Shown here piece after piece: positions 21,947 to 43,438 of a DNA stretch of 56,621 nt. Both the position numbers and the translations under genes were made by a program. The notes under the pieces were generated by a model that was not told the origin of the DNA, made no database searches, and saw only the letters and a list, made by a program, of their open reading frames with translations. The DNA comes from a virus. Lineage: Duplodnaviria; Caudoviricetes. Where the stretch lies: IMG/VR virus record IMGVR_UViG_3300030451_004511, positions 1 to 56,621 of that record; one strand, 5' to 3'. Numbering within the stretch: the first letter of the stretch is position 1; each line of letters starts with the position of its first letter.

Positions 21947-22152
21947 GTAATTTGAATTATATTAGAAAGATCCTACATTTGTCACTCGAAATTTTTTTGT
22001 GAAAATTTTTTTTGAAAAACACTTCACATATCACTGATCCATTCTCTCCCCCCTCGTCTCTAGCACACCCCCCTCTCCCTTTTTACATTTTGGAACCTTG
22101 TTTCTATTTTTCTAGCCTGGAACCTTGTATCGATTTCCGTGTAGATTGTTTC

Positions 22153-22186: not shown

Positions 22187-22213
22187 CATGTTTAAATAAT
22201 ATAGGAGATATAT

Positions 22214-23450: not shown

Positions 23451-23548
23451 CACTCGGACAGGGTGTGCTTACTACTATCATCACGAGCGGAGCGAGTGTG
23501 CGACAGTGTGCGACGGACCCTGGACAGCGGTCCACGTGTGCTGTCATG

Positions 23549-23848
23549 AAAATGTTCCATCGGTTCCACGTAAAAACCCCCTTGTGGAACCAACTAATGG
23601 AACCACGTTTTCATCAGTAACCGTGCGGGCTGGCAAGGCGTGCGGAGTACTCTGGTTCCACGGTTCCATCAAAAACAGGTTATGTTATAAAACAGAAGTC
23701 GACCGTCGACCGTGAACCATGAATTTTTGTTAACCAAAAAGTACTGGAACCAATGGAACCAAACTCGCAAACGCAGTAACCACGCGGAATATTCTGGTTC
23801 CACGAGCCATTTTTTACGTGGAACCAAGCGGAACCAGTGGAACATTTT
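23549..23848. repeat. Palindromic array of 12 GGAAC(C)/(G)GTTCC iterons; candidate replication origin
   Basis: 7 forward and 5 reverse copies, mostly in pairs; outer arms are imperfect reverse complements. Confidence 0.65.
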
Positions 23849-23849
23849 T

Positions 23850-23884
23850 GGTCACCTACGTCCCTCCGGTGACCGGCTATTCAT
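23850..23884 (+). promoter_or_regulatory. Hairpin-box element H3
   Basis: GGTCACC-N11-GGTGACC then GGCTATTCAT, upstream of the SD/ATG at 23912. Confidence 0.5.
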
Positions 23885-24109: not shown

Positions 24110-24145
24110 AGCCACCCTTCTCCGGCGGGGTGGCTGGGTGTTTAT
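24110..24145 (+). promoter_or_regulatory. Hairpin-box element H4
   Basis: AGCCA-CCCTTC-TCC-GGCGGG-G-TGGCT then GGGTGTTTAT. Confidence 0.65.
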
Positions 24146-24170
24146 GTTAAGTAAAAATATAGGAGATATT

Positions 24171-24332
24171 ATGAAAATTAGTGAATGTGATGCATGTGGT
24201 GAAGTAAGAGAGTTAGAAGAGTTGGTAGTTGAAAGTGAGATGTATGGAAGTTGTAGGGAATATAATTTAGGTTTTGTGTGCCAAAAGTGTAGAGAAGATA
24301 AAGTTATTGTTAATGAATTATTGGAGGGGTAA
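24171..24332 (+). CDS. Small zinc-finger-like early protein
   Basis: MKISECDAC...CQKC; AGGAG SD places the start at 24171. Confidence 0.65.
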   Translation: MKISECDACGEVRELEELVVESEMYGSCREYNLGFVCQKCREDKVIVNELLEG

Positions 24333-24595
24333 TGATGTGTAGAGTTAAATTTATTAGAGAGCCTAAGGAGCCCAATGATGTATATATTGGGCGAGGCTCT
24401 AAGTGGGGCAATCCCTATCGCATCGGCGTGCATGGCTCGCGCGATGAGGTGATTGCCAAATATAGAGATTATCTCGAGAGCAATGAGCATTTAAAGTGCT
24501 CATTGCCTGAGCTAAGAGGTAAGAATTTGGTTTGTTATTGCAAGCCAAAAGCTTGCCATGGTGATGTATTAATGGAATATCTAGCCAACTCCTAA
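24332..24595 (+). CDS. DUF4326-family protein
   Basis: VYIGRGSKWGNPY...LRGKNLVCYCKPKACHGDVL. Confidence 0.85.
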   Translation: MMCRVKFIREPKEPNDVYIGRGSKWGNPYRIGVHGSRDEVIAKYRDYLESNEHLKCSLPELRGKNLVCYCKPKACHGDVLMEYLANS

Positions 24596-24617
24596 CGGAG
24601 ATTGGCTGGGTGTTTAT
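24583..24617 (+). promoter_or_regulatory. Hairpin-box element H5
   Basis: AGCCAA-CTCC-TAAC-GGAG-A-TTGGCT then GGGTGTTTAT. Confidence 0.65.
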
Positions 24618-24714
24618 GTGTGCAAAAATTAAGATAGGTAGTTGTATTTACGCTCTGCTAGCAAGAGAAGTGTTCCAAGTACAACAATACTAAAATTAAT
24701 CCAGGAACCGATTC

Positions 24715-24749
24715 AGCCACTAGCTACCGCTAGTTGGCTGGATGTTTAT
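24715..24749 (+). promoter_or_regulatory. Hairpin-box element H6
   Basis: AGCCA-CTAGC-TACC-GCTAG-T-TGGCT then GGATGTTTAT. Confidence 0.65.
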
Positions 24750-24929
24750 ATTTTAAAAGGTTGAAGTCTCACCGGCTCCTTAAGAGAAGGATAAAGCTTT
24801 GTTTAAAAGGTGGGCCGAGGGGTTACTAAATCCTAGAGTAACTCAGCGAAACTCAGCATGAGAAGGTGGAGGTTTAAATCCCTCAAGATTTCCGATCGAG
24901 CCGACGTTAAGGCCCGGGTAAATTATTCT

Positions 24930-24964
24930 AGCCACTCCCTAACGGGAGTTGGCTGGATGTTTAT
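24930..24964 (+). promoter_or_regulatory. Hairpin-box element H7
   Basis: AGCCA-CTCCC-TAAC-GGGAG-T-TGGCT then GGATGTTTAT. Confidence 0.65.
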
Positions 24965-24988
24965 ATGAACTAAAAATTGGAGATTGAT

Positions 24989-25350: not shown

Positions 25351-25373
25351 GGGGGCTTCGGCCCCCTTTTTTT
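25351..25373 (+). terminator. Intrinsic terminator
   Basis: GGGGGC-TTCG-GCCCCC followed by T7. Confidence 0.92.
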
Positions 25374-25454
25374 AATATCTTTTAATAAGACACACTGCGT
25401 GTGTGTTTTTTATTTTGGTCCAGAGGGGTGTGCGCAGTCTATGTGCTCAGAAAA

Positions 25455-25513: not shown

Positions 25514-25657
25514 ATGGAAGAAAAATATATTGACGAGTCAATTCGTCGAGAAGCGAGTGATTATTTGTACATACCTGAGTTGAAGAACTCAGAAGTGTTG
25601 CAAGTAATTGCAAATAGAAACCAACACTCTAAACCACAAGGAGGTAAACATGAGTAA
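25514..25657 (+). CDS. Small hypothetical protein (47 aa, not in the ORF track)
   Basis: MEEKYIDES...; GGAGG SD. Confidence 0.55.
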   Translation: MEEKYIDESIRREASDYLYIPELKNSEVLQVIANRNQHSKPQGGKHE

Positions 25658-26487: not shown

Positions 26488-26667
26488 AAAATTGTGGGGA
26501 GTAGGGGTTGGTTACCGAACACCCAGCTGGGAGATGAAAAGGTCCCAGCACCGATATAAGGACGAGGGTTTTATTAGTTATTTTTATCCCTTCATTGACG
26601 AGCGTGGTTCACTCCAGTCCGCAAACGAACCACCTATAATTATTTTTTAACACTCGGAGGTGTGCAC

Positions 26668-27048
26668 ATGGGATTAGATATGAATGCAGGTTGGGTCAAC
26701 GACGATAAAAAAGAAGATGTCGTTGAGTTTCGTTGGAGAAAACATGCCAAGCTACAAGAGTTTATGCGTCAGCTTTGGTATCAGAAACAAGGTAAAGAGG
26801 CACCGGTAGGTGTAATGGGTTGCGATTTCAACTGCGAGACTCTTTACTTAGATGAAGTCGATATTCATGAGCTCAAGCAGAAACTAGAAACTTTTACTTT
26901 GCCACAAGCAAAGGACGGTTTCTTTTGGGGACAAGAGTATCAAGACGACAGCGCCCGTGAATCGGTGACCTATGACCTTGATTTTTGTACCAAAGCCCTT
27001 GCTTGGTTACAAGAAGGTCGTAAAGTTTGGTATAGTTGTTGGTGGTAA
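26668..27048 (+). CDS. Conserved phage hypothetical protein
   Basis: MGLDM...WRKHAKLQEFM...FNCE...GFFWG...VWYSCWW, a pattern seen in many phages. Confidence 0.75.
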   Translation: MGLDMNAGWVNDDKKEDVVEFRWRKHAKLQEFMRQLWYQKQGKEAPVGVMGCDFNCETLYLDEVDIHELKQKLETFTLPQAKDGFFWGQEYQDDSARESVTYDLDFCTKALAWLQEGRKVWYSCWW

Positions 27049-27070
27049 CACCAGGAGGTCAAAAACCATT

Positions 27071-27271
27071 ATGACACAGTATTCTGAAAAGGTTGCAAAA
27101 CGCAAAGAAGAGCTCAAACAAGAAGAGCTAGCTAAAAAAGTACACGCCATAGAGATAAGGTCAGGTCGTATCCAGACCTGGTATAAAGATGGGCGTGTTG
27201 TAACTGAGTTTCCTCGCGATAAGAGGAAAAAAACTACAGTTGAGTATAGAAATGTAGGGAGACAACTATGA
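27071..27271 (+). CDS. Hypothetical protein
   Basis: Start MTQYSEK after AGGAGG. Confidence 0.65.
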   Translation: MTQYSEKVAKRKEELKQEELAKKVHAIEIRSGRIQTWYKDGRVVTEFPRDKRKKTTVEYRNVGRQL

Positions 27272-27444
27272 GCAAACTCAAAGATCTCATGCTAGATATC
27301 GATGCCCATGCCCAGACTCTCGTCGATGAGGGTTATAACTTTTATGAGTTCATGCAAGCCATGACTAAAAAGTATGGAGACATGGGTGGTGCCTATGCCG
27401 AACAGCTATGGAAAGAGCATTGGCAAGACCAATCATCTGATTAA
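27268..27444 (+). CDS. Hypothetical protein (58 aa, not in the ORF track)
   Basis: MSKLKDLMLDID...; GGAG SD; ATGA overlap with the upstream gene. Confidence 0.65.
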   Translation: MSKLKDLMLDIDAHAQTLVDEGYNFYEFMQAMTKKYGDMGGAYAEQLWKEHWQDQSSD

Positions 27445-27451
27445 CCGAACG

Positions 27452-27525
27452 GTCTACACGAGTTAGATTAGTAGAAACCGGCTGACTTGTGTTCGTGTAG
27501 ACGCAATCCTGTGCGCAAGTCAGCC
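27452..27525 (+). ncRNA. Predicted H-type pseudoknot in an intergenic leader
   Basis: Perfect 10-bp stems 27452-61/27493-502 and 27480-89/27516-25, interleaved. Confidence 0.6.
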
Positions 27526-27532
27526 ACCTATT

Positions 27533-27548
27533 CACACAAGGAGGTGTG
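27533..27548 (+). promoter_or_regulatory. SD hairpin with GGA hexaloop (CsrA-type site)
   Basis: CACAC-AAGGAG-GTGTG; related sites at 26650, 28090 and 28295. Confidence 0.6.
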
Positions 27549-27550
27549 TT

Positions 27551-27838
27551 ATGAAAAAAGGTCATTTATTGGATAGCACTACAAAATATCTAACTGAAGA
27601 TGAAATAGAGCTAAACAAACAACATTCTTTAAAAGAGAACAGACATAGCACTGCCATTGCTCTAACTTACGCAGATAAGGAAAGACTAAAACGGGTAGCA
27701 AAAGCTTTAGGTCTTAAATCACCAGCTGAAGCTATTAGGTACTTAACTTCTATGTTTATACCTGTTATCGAGGCTTGTTATGAAAATCAAACAGCTGACA
27801 TCATAAAACAAATGCAAAATACTTTGGTGAACAAATGA
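27551..27838 (+). CDS. Putative ribbon-helix-helix-type DNA-binding protein
   Basis: TAIALTYADKERLKRVAKALGLKSPAEAIRYL strand-helix-helix pattern. Confidence 0.5.
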   Translation: MKKGHLLDSTTKYLTEDEIELNKQHSLKENRHSTAIALTYADKERLKRVAKALGLKSPAEAIRYLTSMFIPVIEACYENQTADIIKQMQNTLVNK

Positions 27839-28011
27839 AAGTATTTGTTGTAATTACTATGTGGAAAGGTTTAATTGATGAAGTTGAAGTCTTTAAAACT
27901 GAACCCACTAACCTTAAACCAGTAGACGAACATGCAGACAATGGTCAGCTATGTTACGAACTACAGATTAAAGAGAAGGAGGAACGCAAGAGGCAGAAAG
28001 CTAGACTCTAG
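27835..28011 (+). CDS. Hypothetical protein (58 aa, not in the ORF track)
   Basis: MKVFVVITMWKG...; ATGA overlap. Confidence 0.5.
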   Translation: MKVFVVITMWKGLIDEVEVFKTEPTNLKPVDEHADNGQLCYELQIKEKEERKRQKARL

Positions 28012-28107
28012 TTGTAGGTGAAATCGCAACGTAAAAAAAGGAAGGCCTGTCTAGCCTTGTGTTTCTCTTTCTCTTTAATTTAGTAAATTCACACAAGGAG
28101 GTGTGCT

Positions 28108-28293
28108 ATGGAAAACCAAGATATTAAACCAAAAAGCAATCGCAACGATTATAAACCTGTTCTTTTGCCCAAAGAGTTTCATGCAGAACTAAAAGAATAT
28201 TGTGCAAAACACAGCTTGCCGATGAACCACTTTATCGTAGCAGCATGCCGTAGGCATTTTAAATATCTAGCTGATTTACTGGATATGCAATAA
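28108..28293 (+). CDS. Putative ribbon-helix-helix (Arc-like) DNA-binding protein
   Basis: KPVLLPKEFHAELKEYCAKHSLPMNHFIVAAC. Confidence 0.55.
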   Translation: MENQDIKPKSNRNDYKPVLLPKEFHAELKEYCAKHSLPMNHFIVAACRRHFKYLADLLDMQ

Positions 28294-28313
28294 ACACACG
28301 AGGAGGTGTGCAC

Positions 28314-28655
28314 GTGAAAGATCTTTATCAACTTCACATCCAAATTTCTGTGCAAGATTACGAATGCGAACGTAAACGTGAGCTCGATGTCTTGCCTGAC
28401 TACACTACCTATTGCCTGGGTTTCACCGACAATACCGGTATAACGGATACGTTAGACAAACTTAGCGACCAAGTTAAGCATCTTTGTGAAGTCTATCGAA
28501 CTACATCCGAACTTCCCGCAGACACACCGCTGCACGTTGGCCTTTGGTTTACAACCCCTGCCAACAAAGACGACGTAACATTTGAACCATGGAACAAAGA
28601 ACCGAATCCCAACTGGACACCAACAATTATTCAAGGAGGTAAAAGTGAAAAATAA
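28314..28655 (+). CDS. Hypothetical protein
   Basis: GTG start after GAGGAGG. Confidence 0.65.
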   Translation: MKDLYQLHIQISVQDYECERKRELDVLPDYTTYCLGFTDNTGITDTLDKLSDQVKHLCEVYRTTSELPADTPLHVGLWFTTPANKDDVTFEPWNKEPNPNWTPTIIQGGKSEK

Positions 28656-34222: not shown

Positions 34223-34432
34223 ATGTCTAAAGTTTTAGTCAAACGCAACCCTATTCATCCTTACACATACAAGAATCCTGACGACTTGCCACGCATCCAA
34301 TGGAAACTAGTTTCTAAAGGAGTTGCATACAACATGGTACACAGTAAGCAAATCGGTTGGGAGCGAGCTAAGAAAGGTGAATACGAAGATTGGCAACAAC
34401 AAATGAAACAACGAGGTTTTAAAATTTTATGA
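34223..34432 (+). CDS. Hypothetical protein
   Basis: 69 aa; AAGGA SD; overlaps the polymerase start. Confidence 0.65.
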   Translation: MSKVLVKRNPIHPYTYKNPDDLPRIQWKLVSKGVAYNMVHSKQIGWERAKKGEYEDWQQQMKQRGFKIL

Positions 34433-36228
34433 ACAAAATCTATCTTGACTTTGAAACTTACTACGATACAGAAGTATCACTCTCAAAAATTACAACGCTA
34501 CAATACGTGCATCATCCAGACTTCAAAATCTGGGGTGTCGGTGTAAAGCTTAATGATGAACCTACCGAATGGTATGGTGAAGATGATTATCTTGATGCAT
34601 TACAACAGATCCCCTGGGAAGACTGTGCAGTTATTTGCCACAACACTTTGTTTGATGCATACATTTTGACACAGCATCTAGGATTATATCCTGCATACTA
34701 TTACGATACAGCTGCCATGGCCCGGGGTTTGTATCCAAACCAATCAGCTGCATTGAAAGCAGTAGCTGAACGTGTGTTTCCTAACGATGAAACCATGCGT
34801 AAAGGAGAGGAACTAGTCAATGCAAAAGGTATTCGCGACTTGCCTCCTGACATCGAAGAACAAATTGCTGGTTATTGTATACAAGACGTAGATCTAACTT
34901 ATGCAATCTTCAACAAGTTTATACAAGACTATCCAGCTGATGAGCTCGATGTAATCGATCTGACCTGCCGCATGTATGTAGAACCAAAACTGACCTTGAA
35001 CCGTGAACTTTTGCTCAAGCACCTTGAAGATACTAAAGTTAGAACAGCACAACTTATTGAAGACTCAGGAGTAACACGCGAAGTTCTTGCATCTCAAAAA
35101 AAGTTTGCTGAACATCTAGAAAGCCTGGACATTGTTGTACCAACTAAAAAGAGCCCCAATACAGGTAAACAAATACCCGCATTTAGTAAAACAGATTCGG
35201 CGTATATACAAATGCAAAATGTTTATCCTGAATACAAACATCTTTGGGATGCCAGAGAAGCTGTAAAGTCACGCTTAGAAGAAACACGCGCACAAAGGTT
35301 TCTAGAAAACATTAACCCAGACGGAACATTTCCTGTGCCGCTTAGGTATTATGCCGCACACACAGGACGATTCGGTGGTACAGAAAGTCTTAACTTACAA
35401 AACCTGCCCCGGGGATCTGTGTTACGTAAAGCACTTACAGCTCCTGAAGGCCAACGTTTGTTTGTTGCTGACTTATCAAACATCGAAGCCCGCATGCTTG
35501 CATGGCTTGCTAATCAACAAGATTTACTTGACGCCTTTGCAGCAGGACGTGATGTATACAGCGAGTTTGCATCACAAATTTACGGCAGACCTGTAACTAA
35601 AGCTGACAAACTAGAACGTTATGTTGGTAAGACAGCTATCTTAGGCCTAGGTTATGGTATGGGACATGAAAAATTTAGATACACACTCAAGACAGGTTCT
35701 CCTTCAGTCGATGTAAGTTTGATGACTGCGCTTAGTGTTGTTACTCAATATCGTGCAATGTATCCAAACATACCAAGGCTTTGGGCTGCATTTAAAGAAC
35801 ATCTTTACACTATGGCTGCAGGCGGAAACAACACAGGTTTACCTTATGGACCTCTCATTGTTCGTGGTAAAGCTATAGAACTACCCAACAAAATGCGTTT
35901 ACAGTATCCAGAACTTTCGTTCTTGTCAGGTGAATTTACTTACAACTCAGGTAAAAATACTACAAGAACCTACGGAGCTCGTATGGTAGAGAATGTAGTA
36001 CAAGCACTCGCCCGGGCCGTAATTGTAGAACAAATGCTAGCGGTAAACAAAATGCCAGAAGTATCAGTTGTATTACAGGTACATGATGAGATTATATCTA
36101 TTGGCTCAAATGTTAATGCAGACGAGACACTAGCTAAAATAATCGATATAATGAAGACACCTCCACTTTGGTGTTCAACATTACCACTTGACGCAGAGGG
36201 AGATCATAGCCAACAATATGACAAATGA
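34429..36228 (+). CDS. polA: DNA polymerase family A with 3'-5' exonuclease
   Basis: ExoI DFETY; HTGR; motif A DLSNIEAR; motif B RYVGKTAILGLGYG; motif C VHDE. Confidence 0.93.
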   Translation: MNKIYLDFETYYDTEVSLSKITTLQYVHHPDFKIWGVGVKLNDEPTEWYGEDDYLDALQQIPWEDCAVICHNTLFDAYILTQHLGLYPAYYYDTAAMARGLYPNQSAALKAVAERVFPNDETMRKGEELVNAKGIRDLPPDIEEQIAGYCIQDVDLTYAIFNKFIQDYPADELDVIDLTCRMYVEPKLTLNRELLLKHLEDTKVRTAQLIEDSGVTREVLASQKKFAEHLESLDIVVPTKKSPNTGKQIPAFSKTDSAYIQMQNVYPEYKHLWDAREAVKSRLEETRAQRFLENINPDGTFPVPLRYYAAHTGRFGGTESLNLQNLPRGSVLRKALTAPEGQRLFVADLSNIEARMLAWLANQQDLLDAFAAGRDVYSEFASQIYGRPVTKADKLERYVGKTAILGLGYGMGHEKFRYTLKTGSPSVDVSLMTALSVVTQYRAMYPNIPRLWAAFKEHLYTMAAGGNNTGLPYGPLIVRGKAIELPNKMRLQYPELSFLSGEFTYNSGKNTTRTYGARMVENVVQALARAVIVEQMLAVNKMPEVSVVLQVHDEIISIGSNVNADETLAKIIDIMKTPPLWCSTLPLDAEGDHSQQYDK

Positions 36229-36416: not shown

Positions 36417-38882
36417 ATGGAGTTAGTTTTCCTTAAAGCAAAGCAAAAGCTTGCTAAGAAAATATCGGAACAAGGTGTAACACCTTATCCACTCATTAAG
36501 AACTTTACCTCAGTTCATAAAACAATAAAGAAAGATCCAAGTAAGTTATTAACTGAACTTACAAAAGCGGCCGCAGCTGGTATGTGTTTACATAAAGGTC
36601 CTCTCAAACGCGAACTCAACCATGAACCTCGCGCGTTGATGACAGACAGAGTTGCATCAACTGAGTTACTTGTATTAGATTTTGACAACATACAAGTACC
36701 TTTACCTAAAAAACCTGACTTAAATACTCAAGATTTAGAAAACTTAGCTGAGCAACTTATACAACAAATGCCCCAGGAGTTTCATGATGTAACATACATT
36801 GCTCAAGCTAGCGCTTCTCTTGGGTACAAAAAAGATTCTGTATCCTTACATATCTTTTTTATTTTAGAAAACTCTATACATCCAAAAGTTCTTAAAGAAA
36901 CACTTAAACTATTGAATTATGAAACTGAATTTTTAGCAGAGCGTTTAACTTTATCTGCAAATGGTCAAAGTTTATCTTACAAACTTGACCCGGGTGTAGC
37001 TGACAATTCAAAAATTATTTATATTGCACCGCCAACTTTTGTAGGTGATGTAAAAGATCCAATTACAGGTCCTAGATTTGTTAAAGTCGACCGTGGTTCG
37101 TCTACCTTAGATCTTTCAGCATTATTGTTTTCAGTTAACCCCGAACGTGTTCACAACTTAGGCGTACAAATAAAAGACAACTTAAGAAAAAAATCAAACT
37201 TACCAAAGAAAGCTACTAAAACAACAACCGTCAATATAGCAGGAGAACCCCAAGAGGTATTACAAAACCCTGATAAGATGACCATCGAAGTAAGTAGAGT
37301 AGCTGAACCTTATGTTAACTGTAATGTAAATGGGGGTGACAGTGGTGGATATTATTTTTTATTAACAGACCCACATTACATGTATAACTTTAAAGGTGAA
37401 CCTATTTGGGAAATACAAAAAGCAGATCCAGACTTTTATAAAAATATCTTTGAAATATTTGCAGATAAAATAGATCAAGATAAAAAGTTAAAACCCGTCG
37501 CACTACGTGACTTTTACACTGACACTTATTACAACGGAATCTATGATGAAACAATTGAACAATTCACAGATGAGTACCCGCTTACTCCGACAAATAAACA
37601 ATCGATTGATGATTTTATGCGGTCTCATAATCGTCCTCCCCTCGATTACATTCCTGATGCTAGGGTTGTTTTTGACCCGGCTGTTAATCAAGGTATTCAA
37701 TTAGACGAAGCTCCATATTATGTAAACATGTATAGGAAAACATCCTATATGTTAAAAGAAGACTCGTCTGCACCCGAACTAGAATATGGGACAGCTAACA
37801 AACTCCATGTAGCAACACCACTATTTGCTAAGTTACTGTCTCATGTTCTTGGTGGGGGCAAAACAGAATTTGAACATTTCATTAATTGGCTTGCATACAT
37901 TTACCAACACAAAAAGAAAACAATGACAGCATGGATCTTTACAGGAGTTCCTGGTACCGGTAAAGGTTTGTTAATTCATAAAGTACTCAAGCCACTTTTT
38001 GGTGAACAACAAGTACCTATGCGAGCATTAGAAAACATAGAAGAACAATTCAACTTATACATGCGTACCGCACTCTTTCTTGTAGTTGATGAGTTTCGTA
38101 TGGGAGATGCAGGTAGTATTGGTAAAATGGCAGACAAACTAAAACACCAAATAACAGAACCTAATCTTACTATTCGCGCAATGCGTACAAATCAAATTGA
38201 GCTACCAAGTTTCTGTAACTTCTTATTTCTTACTAACAGAGCTGACGCAGTCAAGATTGAAGAAGGAGATCGTCGTTACAACGTAGGCCCCAGGCAAGAA
38301 GTAAAACTAGAAAAAACATATCCAGAACTTTTAAATGATATGGACAAACTAGAAGCAGAACTTTATATGCTTGCAGGAGTATTAACTAAGTTTAAAGTTG
38401 ATAATCGTATGGCACATACAGCATTAGAAAACGAAGCTAAGATACAAATGAAGAATGTATCTATGTCAGTACTTGAAGAGTTTGCTGCAGCAGTACGTCA
38501 ACGCAACTTAGAATACTTTACTGAGATATTAGATATACCACTTACAAACACCTTTGATGCTGGTGGCATAAGTACAGCACAACGTTACATTAAACACTGG
38601 GTTGCTACTGTAGGTGAAGAAATAGTCATACCTATGAGTCAATTTAAATTACTTTACGATGTGTTAACTGACAGCCGTAACAAACTGTCAACTCGTGACT
38701 TTACTAAAGCTATGTCGCGACTAAACATTAAGACAGCTCGTAAGCGTGTAACAAAAGACAGAGATGCATCTATACCACGAGGGGTTGTATTAACGTGGAA
38801 ATTAGATAATAATGTTCAGAACTCGTTAATTAAAGAACACTTTGATGAACGAGATAAGCAACTAGTAAAAGGAGTTAGCTAA
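36417..38882 (+). CDS. Primase-helicase (SF3/D5-like helicase C-terminus)
   Basis: LVLDFD and SLHIFF primase-like motifs; GVPGTGKG, LVVDE, LTN, DRRY. Confidence 0.8.
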   Translation: MELVFLKAKQKLAKKISEQGVTPYPLIKNFTSVHKTIKKDPSKLLTELTKAAAAGMCLHKGPLKRELNHEPRALMTDRVASTELLVLDFDNIQVPLPKKPDLNTQDLENLAEQLIQQMPQEFHDVTYIAQASASLGYKKDSVSLHIFFILENSIHPKVLKETLKLLNYETEFLAERLTLSANGQSLSYKLDPGVADNSKIIYIAPPTFVGDVKDPITGPRFVKVDRGSSTLDLSALLFSVNPERVHNLGVQIKDNLRKKSNLPKKATKTTTVNIAGEPQEVLQNPDKMTIEVSRVAEPYVNCNVNGGDSGGYYFLLTDPHYMYNFKGEPIWEIQKADPDFYKNIFEIFADKIDQDKKLKPVALRDFYTDTYYNGIYDETIEQFTDEYPLTPTNKQSIDDFMRSHNRPPLDYIPDARVVFDPAVNQGIQLDEAPYYVNMYRKTSYMLKEDSSAPELEYGTANKLHVATPLFAKLLSHVLGGGKTEFEHFINWLAYIYQHKKKTMTAWIFTGVPGTGKGLLIHKVLKPLFGEQQVPMRALENIEEQFNLYMRTALFLVVDEFRMGDAGSIGKMADKLKHQITEPNLTIRAMRTNQIELPSFCNFLFLTNRADAVKIEEGDRRYNVGPRQEVKLEKTYPELLNDMDKLEAELYMLAGVLTKFKVDNRMAHTALENEAKIQMKNVSMSVLEEFAAAVRQRNLEYFTEILDIPLTNTFDAGGISTAQRYIKHWVATVGEEIVIPMSQFKLLYDVLTDSRNKLSTRDFTKAMSRLNIKTARKRVTKDRDASIPRGVVLTWKLDNNVQNSLIKEHFDERDKQLVKGVS

Positions 38883-42583: not shown

Positions 42584-42926
42584 AGAAATCTACAAGTGGA
42601 AAATCAACGATCCGTATCACGGAGGTGTGCCTGACACTTTCTACTCAGGTCCAAAAGGATTTGCTTTCTTTGAATACAAATACATACAAAAGCTCCCTAA
42701 ACGAGGAACGTCTAAAATTAAAGTTGACCTTTCTGCACAACAGCGTGCCTGGCTGCAACGTCAGTATGACTACAACATACCTGTGTATTACATTTTAGGG
42801 TCCCCGGAAGGTTGTATTGTAAGTCAAGAGTTTCAAAGAGAGTTTTTTACTTTAGATGAGTTTACTCAGTGTGCCTGCACAACTGATCAATTTATAGACA
42901 AAATAATCAACATATGTTTACAATAA
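42537..42926 (+). CDS. VRR-NUC/resolvase-like PD-(D/E)XK nuclease
   Basis: MREKEF...GVPD...FFEYK...LSAQQRAWL. Confidence 0.75.
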   Translation: MREKEFINKIHKKLPKEIYKWKINDPYHGGVPDTFYSGPKGFAFFEYKYIQKLPKRGTSKIKVDLSAQQRAWLQRQYDYNIPVYYILGSPEGCIVSQEFQREFFTLDEFTQCACTTDQFIDKIINICLQ

Positions 42927-42936
42927 AGGAGGAAAT

Positions 42937-43161
42937 ATGGAATTTGACCCTGTAAATAAGCCAATACATTATAACCAAGGTGGTATTGAGTGTATTGATG
43001 CTATTGAGGCGAGTATGACGAATGAAGGTTTTTGCAACTACTGTAAAGGAAATATTATGAAATACCTTTGGCGGTGGGAAAACAAAAACAAGAAACAAGA
43101 CTTACTCAAAGCGCAATGGTATTTAAATAGGCTTATTAATTCAATAAAAGAAGATGAGTGA
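42937..43161 (+). CDS. DUF3310 (SaV/T7 gp1.7-like) protein
   Basis: DPVNKPIHY...IECIDAI...GNIMKYLWR...DLLKAQWYL. Confidence 0.88.
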   Translation: MEFDPVNKPIHYNQGGIECIDAIEASMTNEGFCNYCKGNIMKYLWRWENKNKKQDLLKAQWYLNRLINSIKEDE

Positions 43162-43438
43162 CGACGTATTACATTTTACACACCTTTCTAAAACTCTAGG
43201 GAAGTGCACAAGTATGGCCGACAGTCCATGCATTGGTGTTTGTACGGTTACACAATGGGGTGACGATCGTTGTAAAGGGTGCGGGAGGACTGCACTTGAG
43301 ATTAGACAATGGGGAAAATACTCTGATATAGAGAAAAAACTCATAAATCTAAGAAATGCCAACGAAAAGTACGCTATTAGACAGCTAAAAACTGGAAATC
43401 GCACACAACGCACGGAGAAGCCCTCTACTGCAATATAG
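43154..43438 (+). CDS. DUF1289-family Cys-rich protein
   Basis: SPCIGVC...CKGCGRT..EI..W. Confidence 0.8.
   Translation: MSDDVLHFTHLSKTLGKCTSMADSPCIGVCTVTQWGDDRCKGCGRTALEIRQWGKYSDIEKKLINLRNANEKYAIRQLKTGNRTQRTEKPSTAI

Follow-up and report, generated by a model that had tools for sequence, protein, structure and literature searches.

The window analysed here is the whole virus record IMGVR_UViG_3300030451_004511 (Duplodnaviria; Caudoviricetes), a stretch of 56,621 bases in which four ribosome-binding sites sit within short hairpins with CAC and GTG arms. We find that this hairpin cassette is real, conserved and specific to the phage group to which the window belongs, and that it also marks gene gain and loss. 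Our preferred reading, to which we give a probability of about 0.4, is that the hairpin would serve as an operator for a protein of the CsrA family, placed at the ribosome site.

A conserved hairpin cassette at ribosome sites

All four hairpins proposed in a preliminary description of the DNA are in place (Table 1), and each lies 2–5 nt from its start codon (ATG 26668, ATG 27551, ATG 28108 and GTG 28314), copy 4 beginning immediately after the TAA stop codon at 28291–28293. When both strands of the 56,621 bases are searched, CACNNGGAGGTG matches four times where 0.03 matches are expected, and none of 100 shuffles reaches four. The pattern GGAGGTGTG has five matches in the window against 0.24 expected, namely the four hairpin sites and a fifth at 42621. 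The loop of copy 1 shows a population variant in the sequencing runs, C>A at 26655. Also present is the ACAAGGAGGT that had been described before the ATG at 25650, where a degenerate copy of the cassette is found, and the orthologue of the gene at 25650 carries CCACAAGGAGGTGCC in relatives. Contigs from RNA libraries cover parts of the region, one of them across copy 2 (27479–27629, run X17); transcript ends are not readable from these contigs, and their origin may be DNA.

Related sequences were gathered via the 126-aa gene behind copy 1, the CsrA gene (55 loci) and the polymerase (52 loci). Among the 48 related records searched (48 of 60 loci), GGAGGTGTG occurs in 11, clustered and on one strand per record, and a backwards-read control of the pattern has no match in the same 48. 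From related marine phage contigs we collected 24 distinct copies, which lie upstream of differing, non-orthologous genes and share a consensus of a T-run, (A)CAC.., GGAGGTGTGC, 2–4 nt and a start codon. This set was picked by its 3′ arm, so that the invariance of that arm is built in. The 5′ arm and loop together appear as ACACACA, CACACAA, ACACATA, ACACAT, ACACTT, ACACTC, ACACTATA, GCACA and GCACAG. The gap between CAC and GGAGG varies, giving loops of 5–8 nt, and the arms are still complementary in two registers.

An unbiased view comes from the full set of 395 distinct GGAG sites of the clade that have a start codon, scored for GTG after GGAG(G) and for CAC at most 8 nt upstream. Both arms are present at 27 sites, GTG only at 2, CAC only at 28 and neither at 338. 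The association between the arms is strong (Fisher p = 2.8e-24), a value that overstates the independence of sites sharing ancestry.

Could the arms be no more than an extended Shine-Dalgarno sequence? The 9 nt of AAGGAGGTG are complementary to the 16S 3′ end, which accounts for the GTG of the 3′ arm. The next bases depart from this pattern: TG follows GGAGGTG in 24/24 copies where complementarity to 16S would want A, and it is with CA in the 5′ arm that this TG pairs. In a prophage-like relative introduced below (G054), the arms flank AAGGAGA, so that the GTG is out of register with the anti-Shine-Dalgarno sequence. An extended Shine-Dalgarno sequence alone therefore does not explain the arms. 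The caveat raised at the outset, that the stem and not GGAGG is the discriminating feature, holds: the stems are conserved, beyond chance and not accounted for in this way.

In 51-nt stretches at the four sites, the minimum-free-energy fold contains the hairpin in every case; the stretches are no more stable than their shuffles (z = 0.49, −0.04, −0.23 and −0.87). The isolated hairpins are weak (−3.8, −5.3, −5.1 and −6.7 kcal/mol for copies 1 to 4), whereas the duplex of these stretches with a generic anti-Shine-Dalgarno sequence is predicted at −10.8 to −13.1 kcal/mol. With a hairpin so much weaker than the competing duplex, it is unlikely that the hairpin alone keeps ribosomes off; a protein clamp would make sense of such hairpins. 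AT-rich palindromes around ribosome sites (e.g. ATATAggagaTATAT at 22204) were also considered as a general feature and rejected as low-complexity sequence. Their number exceeds flank-swap and shuffle nulls (16 versus 7.2 for stems of at least 4 bp, 9 versus 2.4 for at least 5 bp), but a mirror-repeat control gives 14 and 4 and the excess is not sustained. Among palindromes at ribosome sites, only the GC-containing CAC/GTG class stands out.

The copies are tied to gene gain and loss as well. Copies 2 and 3 are the left and right copy of a 29-nt direct repeat (family D8), 93% identical. The 557 bp between them are missing in a close relative (G001), where the alignment jumps from window position 27556 to 28087 across a 27-nt overlap. 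This gene cassette is also missing from part of the natural population: in run X2 the depth drops over 27544–28079, and a contig from that run passes from the sequence upstream of copy 2 straight into copy 3, with GTCAGCCACCT as a loose end before 28087. An insertion or deletion between close relatives is thus bounded by copies of the repeat; as near-identical direct repeats, the copies also act as recombination junctions. At the position of copy 4, G001 has a 79-aa cysteine-rich gene (CxxC ... CxxC; L087, 1654–1893) that is absent from the window.

Table 1. Positions of the hairpin cassette, the genes around it and other features (window coordinates unless another contig is named)
Feature	Position	Strand	Description
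Cassette copy 1	26641..26670	+	T-run, ACAC (26650-53), loop TCGGAG, GTGT (26660-63), GCAC, ATG 26668
Cassette copy 2	27530..27553	+	CACAC (27533-37), loop AAGGAG, GTGTG (27544-48), TT, ATG 27551
Cassette copy 3	28087..28110	+	CACAC (28090-94), loop AAGGAG, GTGTG (28101-05), CT, ATG 28108
Cassette copy 4	28292..28316	+	CACAC (28295-99), loop GAGGAG, GTGTG (28306-10), CAC, GTG 28314
Degenerate copy	25632..25652	+	CCACAAGGAGGTAAAC, then ATG 25650; 5′ CAC retained, 3′ arm gone
Upstream conserved hairpin	26526..26549	+	GCTGGGA-GATGAAAAGG-TCCCAGC; downstream of a 260-aa gene
126-aa gene behind copy 1	26668..27048	+	No family match; orthologues in relatives
95-aa gene behind copy 2	27551..27838	+	Single-sequence AlphaFold model all-helical, five helices, pLDDT (predicted local distance difference test) 65
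61-aa gene behind copy 3	28108..28293	+	Weak ribbon-helix-helix/Arc-like candidate
113-aa gene behind copy 4	28314..28655	+	No family match
Gene cassette between copies 2 and 3	27557..28086	+	95-aa and 58-aa genes
DNA polymerase	34429-36228	+	
Phage csrA, 60 aa	36225..36407	+	Pfam, PHROG and solved-chain matches
Primase-like gene	36417-38882	+	
G054 prophage-like relative	C1, about 613,000-672,000		Loci L160-L166

The phage CsrA and its candidate operator

The preliminary description had named a phage CsrA, and its identity is now confirmed. The product matches Pfam family PF02599 with E = 6e-12 and 45.8 bits (cut-off 27) over profile positions 2–52 of 53, and PHROG 9500, a CsrA-like regulator, with E = 4.8e-12. 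In alignments with solved CsrA chains (E about 1e-4), its segment LVLTRR lies opposite LILTRR and its DREEIY opposite HREEIY. We take the RNA-binding residues of CsrA to be those of strand 1, L-x-L-T-R-R, and of strand 5, R-E-E-I (R44 in E. coli numbering); L4, L6, R8, R50 and E52 of the phage protein are invariant in 20 phage homologues. Judged by its sequence, this is a genuine CsrA that keeps the known RNA-binding residues. Its ATG overlaps the stop codon of the DNA polymerase gene (ATGA), and the gene ends 9 nt before the primase-like gene. From this arrangement the phage CsrA is probably made together with the replication proteins, as had been supposed. The CsrA family is common on phage-sized contigs of marine origin, and a tblastn search of cultured phages with the window protein was negative at E <= 1e-3.

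How well does the hairpin agree with what CsrA is known to bind? Selection from random pools (SELEX, the systematic evolution of ligands through exponential enrichment) gave the consensus RUACARGGAUGU, with ACA and GGA 100% conserved and GU nearly so (PMC7652899). In the same account, GGA lies in a hairpin loop in 51/55 ligands, the hairpins have mostly no more than 4 contiguous base pairs, and in 44 ligands a hexaloop is closed by AC/GU. Copies 2 and 3, AC-AAGGAG-GU on a 5-bp stem, agree fully with this ACA-GGA-GU hairpin definition. Copies 1 and 4 have the hairpin and the GGA, but UC or GA precedes the GGA; most relatives have AC-AGGAG-GU. The RsmE-type pattern WCANGGANGW has 12 matches in the window where 5.2 are expected; copies 2 and 3 are among these, as are two further ribosome sites, at 25636 and 28631. 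By sequence, then, the hairpin fits the SELEX-defined CsrA site.

The likeness extends to the known CsrA/RsmE hairpins of glgC, hcnA and the CsrB/RsmZ loops. There, too, GGA is found in the loop of a short, weak hairpin of 4–5 bp, with ACA on its 5′ side and GU on its 3′ side, and copies 2 and 3 share the AC/GU-closed hexaloop. The site likewise overlaps the Shine-Dalgarno sequence, so that binding would compete with the ribosome (PMC7652899). The cassette differs in that its loop is the Shine-Dalgarno core itself, with G and not U as the next base, in the pentaloop AGGAG of most relatives and in having usually one site per leader. Moreover, the mRNAs concerned are those of a phage, and the protein that may bind them is a phage CsrA that has diverged (E about 1e-4 to solved chains).

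We therefore propose the following scheme as a possible mechanism. The four sites are copies of one portable cassette for translation initiation, some 25 nt long, in which a U-rich tract is followed by a CAC(AC) arm, an A-rich loop with the GGAG core of the Shine-Dalgarno sequence, a GUG(UG) arm, 2–5 nt and the start codon. On the mRNA it would form a weak hairpin of 4–5 bp that displays GGA in a loop of 5–8 nt. This hairpin may be the operator of a CsrA-family protein, the phage CsrA being the first candidate and the host CsrA the second. Clamping loop and stem, CsrA would compete with the 30S subunit and lower the translation of the genes that carry the cassette, and a gene gained at a cassette would come with the same start signal. 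We infer the formation of the hairpin in vivo, the binding of CsrA, and the direction and timing of its effect.

Weighing the CsrA reading and its rivals

If the cassette is a CsrA operator, the two should travel together. The csrA gene is found in 12/12 cassette-bearing records that span both the early region and the polymerase–primase junction; these records form one clade and thus amount to a single observation. An exact scan of a viral collection with the 22-nt clade consensus returned 13 stretches, 5 of them on new contigs of the same clade (large terminase 88–90% identical). The Pfam CsrA profile has no match in these five, all of which break off at or before the polymerase gene, so that the negative is uninformative. 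Stems in relatives without csrA, which the preliminary description had regarded as damaging to its reading, were looked for and not found, although every new contig with the motif ends before the csrA locus.

A scan of a genome collection with the terminase led to a more distant relative, a prophage-like stretch of a Gammaproteobacteria metagenome-assembled genome (G054), on a contig of 2.45 Mb, with identities to the window of 50% for the terminase, 43% for the portal and 37% for the polymerase. G054 has a canonical host csrA and two csrA genes in the prophage region, one of them about 1.7 kb upstream of a primase-like gene. Both prophage copies are closer to bacterial CsrA than the window copy is; QVKL is common to the two prophage proteins and the window protein, while the G054 host protein has QVRI. 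In the prophage, (G/T)CAC-AAGGAGA-GTG(C/A) lies upstream of several genes; the major head gene (phrog_334, E = 1.9e-66) is among them, as are a scaffold-like gene and one resembling a polynucleotide kinase. The pattern CACAWGGAG(N0-2)GTG has 14 matches in the whole genome, 7 of which fall within 644,262–657,684 (13.4 kb), all on the plus strand. With half of the matches in this short part of the prophage, the cassette appears as a phage trait and not as a style of the host.

Sites with coupled arms were then counted by lineage, csrA status being assigned with a profile built from phage homologues. They make up 24/309 sites in clade A (3.9 expected), 8/125 in the G054 prophage (2.7 expected, p = 8.5e-4) and 2/34 near-identical sites in lineage C. 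The csrA-lacking groups D and E have 0/105 each, from loci that span at most the polymerase +/- 10 kb, which weakens the co-occurrence. No CsrA match at E <= 1 was found in Aeromonas phage phiA008; the cassette is absent from all 81 of its annotated starts, of which 52 have GGA in the ribosome-site region, and 1/52 of these has a flanking stem of at least 4 bp. In a polymerase tree (MAFFT and FastTree, rooted on phiA008, with L109 csrA-bearing by profile), csrA-bearing lineages lie on either side of the ingroup root and the csrA-lacking ones are nested beside lineage C.

Several observations weigh against a CsrA operator. Two csrA-bearing lineages have no coupled sites, namely lineage B (polymerase 52–56% identical, 0/31) and record G048 (0/33), so that the cassette is seen in 2–3/5 csrA-bearing and 0/3 csrA-lacking lineages, a difference in the predicted direction that is not significant. 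G001, 94–95% identical in nucleotides, has one cassette copy against four in the window; its orthologue of the 126-aa gene has a plain tataggagtaattatt-ATG start, and that of the 113-aa gene is ATGA-coupled to the extra 79-aa gene. Control would thus not be tied to particular genes. No compensatory double change was seen in the cassette stems. Since GGAG is part of every strong Shine-Dalgarno sequence, only ACA and the pairing are extra. An exact match to WCANGGANGW is found in only 2/4 window stems, copies 1 and 4 having none, and 22/24 copies have an A one or two bases before GGA, with roughly 0.58 estimated from composition. Nor is there a consistent second GGA of the kind used in dual-site binding (10–63 nt away, usual but not obligatory): a GGA lies across the start codon or after it (AUGGAA or AUGGGA) at copies 1 and 3 and also in several relatives, copies 2 and 4 having none there, and the upstream conserved hairpin has GGGAUGA at its stem-loop junction. 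Finally, the scaffold-like and head genes behind the G054 cassettes fit a high-output start better than an early shut-off. The suggestion that CsrA switches early genes off can therefore not be the general meaning of the cassette. What stands of the original operator reading are the conserved, non-chance stems, the fit of the site and the genuine CsrA, together with the occurrence of the stems in csrA-bearing lineages only; the two csrA-bearing lineages that lack them and the single copy in G001 speak against it.

Nearly as likely as the CsrA operator, and partly compatible with it, is a portable start-site cassette that works independently of CsrA. The hairpin would present a strong Shine-Dalgarno sequence in its loop and keep it from being sequestered by upstream sequence such as the CACCU that ends a preceding hairpin, or it would stabilise the mRNA; the cassette would be kept for high, context-independent translation of new genes and spread by recombination like the promoter-early stem-loops (PeSL) of T4-type phages, whose role in gene shuffling is published (PMC2839356). 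The copies do precede non-orthologous genes, a repeat flanks a gene cassette that G001 and part of the population lack, copy number differs between close genomes, and G054 places copies ahead of its major head gene and a scaffold-like gene. The strong predicted duplex with the anti-Shine-Dalgarno sequence and a CACCT 10–20 nt upstream of several copies point the same way. Such a cassette does not account, however, for the arms being CAC/GTG in every case and not some other complementary pair, or for its having been seen only in csrA-bearing lineages, and the late, highly expressed genes of the window do not use it. We regard as improbable that the pattern reflects a long Shine-Dalgarno sequence (AAGGAGGTG) in duplicated start regions of shared ancestry with an incidental stem. 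The anti-Shine-Dalgarno complementarity would explain the GTG, and the absence of compensatory changes and of extra fold stability agrees with an incidental stem. Against this, CAC accompanies 27/29 GTG sites and 28/366 non-GTG sites, the distance between CAC and GGAG drifts by 0–4 nt with complementarity kept, and the invariant TG and the out-of-register arms of G054 described above do not follow from pairing with 16S.

Still less probable is that CACAC...GTGTG acts as DNA, as the operator of a dimeric protein such as the ribbon-helix-helix (RHH)-like product of 28108–28293, which would regulate itself and its neighbours. In its favour, the sequence forms an inverted repeat at the DNA level, the product of one of the downstream genes gives weak RHH-like matches, and a CACAC-TGC-GTGTGTG palindrome without a Shine-Dalgarno sequence occurs at 25391. 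This last, with its T-run, looks like a terminator. What makes a DNA operator unlikely is the spacing of the half-sites, which varies from 5 to 8 bp and would not be tolerated by a dimer, together with the placement of every copy on the coding strand, with a fixed spacing to a start codon; a promoter scan also found no convincing sigma-70 promoter overlapping any of the four copies. Very improbable, finally, is that an endoribonuclease or another processing factor recognises the looped GGAG and so inactivates or matures these mRNAs. The precedent is T4 RegB, which cuts GGAG in early translation-initiation regions and favours GGA when it is unpaired, with a constrained G in fourth place (PMC3014915). 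The window has no match to the RegB or RegA family at E <= 1, and a Pfam scan of 20 small plus-strand proteins turned up no further RNA-binding or nuclease family. The CsrA operator remains our preferred reading. Its extension, which we regard as rather unlikely, is that a family of marine podophages and their prophage kin own a self-contained post-transcriptional circuit of a phage CsrA, encoded next to the primase gene, and a portable hairpin operator that is part of the ribosome site, in which genes acquired by recombination at the cassette would automatically come under the control of the phage's own CsrA.

Genome context and known systems

The record is estimated to be 96% complete (CheckV), with a G+C content of 39%. 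The minus strand carries the structural genes (terminase, portal, major head protein of phrog_334, tail fibres and internal virion proteins), and a plus-strand block of about 22,000–43,600 holds many small early genes followed by replication genes, which include an exonuclease and a helicase as well as those in Table 1. By its large terminase the closest cultured phage is Aeromonas phage phiA008 (51% identity), and a 3.6 kb nucleotide query found no match among cultured phages. About half or more of the words sampled from a 4-kb stretch are found in sequencing runs with labels such as marine, seawater, estuary and sponge metagenome. An Rfam scan at gathering thresholds and a tRNA search returned nothing. 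A search for a T7-type RNA polymerase had no match in the window and none in 14 control genomes, which makes it uninformative. A 2270-aa virion protein was considered as an N4-like RNA polymerase and rejected, its matches being only to a lysozyme-like domain and virion proteins. Two small genes match families of their own: one in the early region at 24332–24595 (DUF4326, E = 1.4e-27) and one in the late block at 43154–43438 (DUF1289, E = 2.3e-13).

Of the genes behind the cassette, two had been described as resembling RHH regulators. For the 61-aa protein the support is weak and sub-threshold: HicB at E = 0.0074 and 16.6 bits (cut-off 21), an Arc-like PHROG at E = 5.1e-4, and a weak match (E = 0.089) to PDB 2kel, named 'Uncharacterized protein 56B' in the search output, which we take to be an RHH regulator. 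Its single-sequence model has an extended N-terminus and two helices (pLDDT 73), for which Foldseek found nothing at E <= 0.001 and VIA-align gave Z at most 4.2. The 95-aa protein (27551–27838) has no RHH match.

Other repeated elements lie nearby. The hairpin at 26526–26549 has a loop core, AUGAAAAG, that is invariant across relatives, and stems that covary (GCAGGG/CCCTGC, GTAGGA/TCTTAC, GTAGGG/CCCTAC, GCTGGG/CCCAGC, GTGGGG/CCCCAC and GCAGGA/TCCTGC). Hairpins of this type are preceded by TAACGACCA or TAACAGCCA and often followed by a T-run and a CACAC cassette copy; in several relatives they stand 10–25 nt before a copy. The element may serve as a terminator whose loop binds a protein, or as another CsrA site. 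Between small early genes lie four stem-loops, each followed by TGTTTAT(G/A)T (24111–24147, 24583–24619, 24715–24751 and 24930–24966) and with compensatory stem changes among them; they make up a second class of repeated regulatory cassette. At 25387–25409, directly after a terminator-like hairpin at 25351, ACACAC-TGC-GTGTGT is followed by a T-run; it has the CACAC/GTGTG arms and no Shine-Dalgarno sequence. More than 10 GGAACC/GGTTCC repeats at 22090–22125 and 23520–23860 occupy apparently non-coding DNA of the early region and could be regulator binding sites or an origin-like array.

Homologues of CsrA are widespread in phages. The window, with csrA in a phage genome, joins the phage-encoded CsrA/RsmA homologues surveyed by Campa et al. 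(PMC8450108). Published proposals concern the manipulation of host genes such as CRISPR-Cas, whereas the candidate operators described here are on the phage's own mRNAs. According to PMC11879866, the role of a phage CsrA was untested until a knock-down reduced plaque size. We found no description of phage-CsrA operators on a phage's own mRNAs in an incomplete literature collection. The cassette offers a concrete and cheap test of whether a phage uses CsrA on itself, in a phage group that is abundant and marine. Whatever its binder, it shows how one short repeat at start sites can standardise expression and at the same time bring about the gain and loss of small genes.

In this second capacity it resembles the PeSL of T4-type phages, conserved regulatory cassettes between small non-essential genes, where recombination between copies adds or deletes gene cassettes (PMC2839356); here a 557-bp gene cassette lies between two 29-nt copies. 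PeSL combine a promoter with a terminator, whereas the present repeat is a ribosome site in a hairpin without a recognisable promoter, in another phage group; none of the four copies unites a sigma-70 promoter and a terminator stem-loop in one repeat unit. In function, the phage CsrA would be like T4 RegA, again a small phage protein from the replication cluster; the action proposed here is competition with ribosomes at the starts of several phage mRNAs. The regA gene is immediately distal to gene 62, and its product represses about 30 mRNAs (PMC3014915). RegA differs in its unrelated fold and in binding, as a monomer, unstructured AU-rich sites at the AUG. The self-contained circuit considered above, if real, would be a CsrA-based counterpart of T4 RegA and, in addition, a vehicle for shuffling genes.

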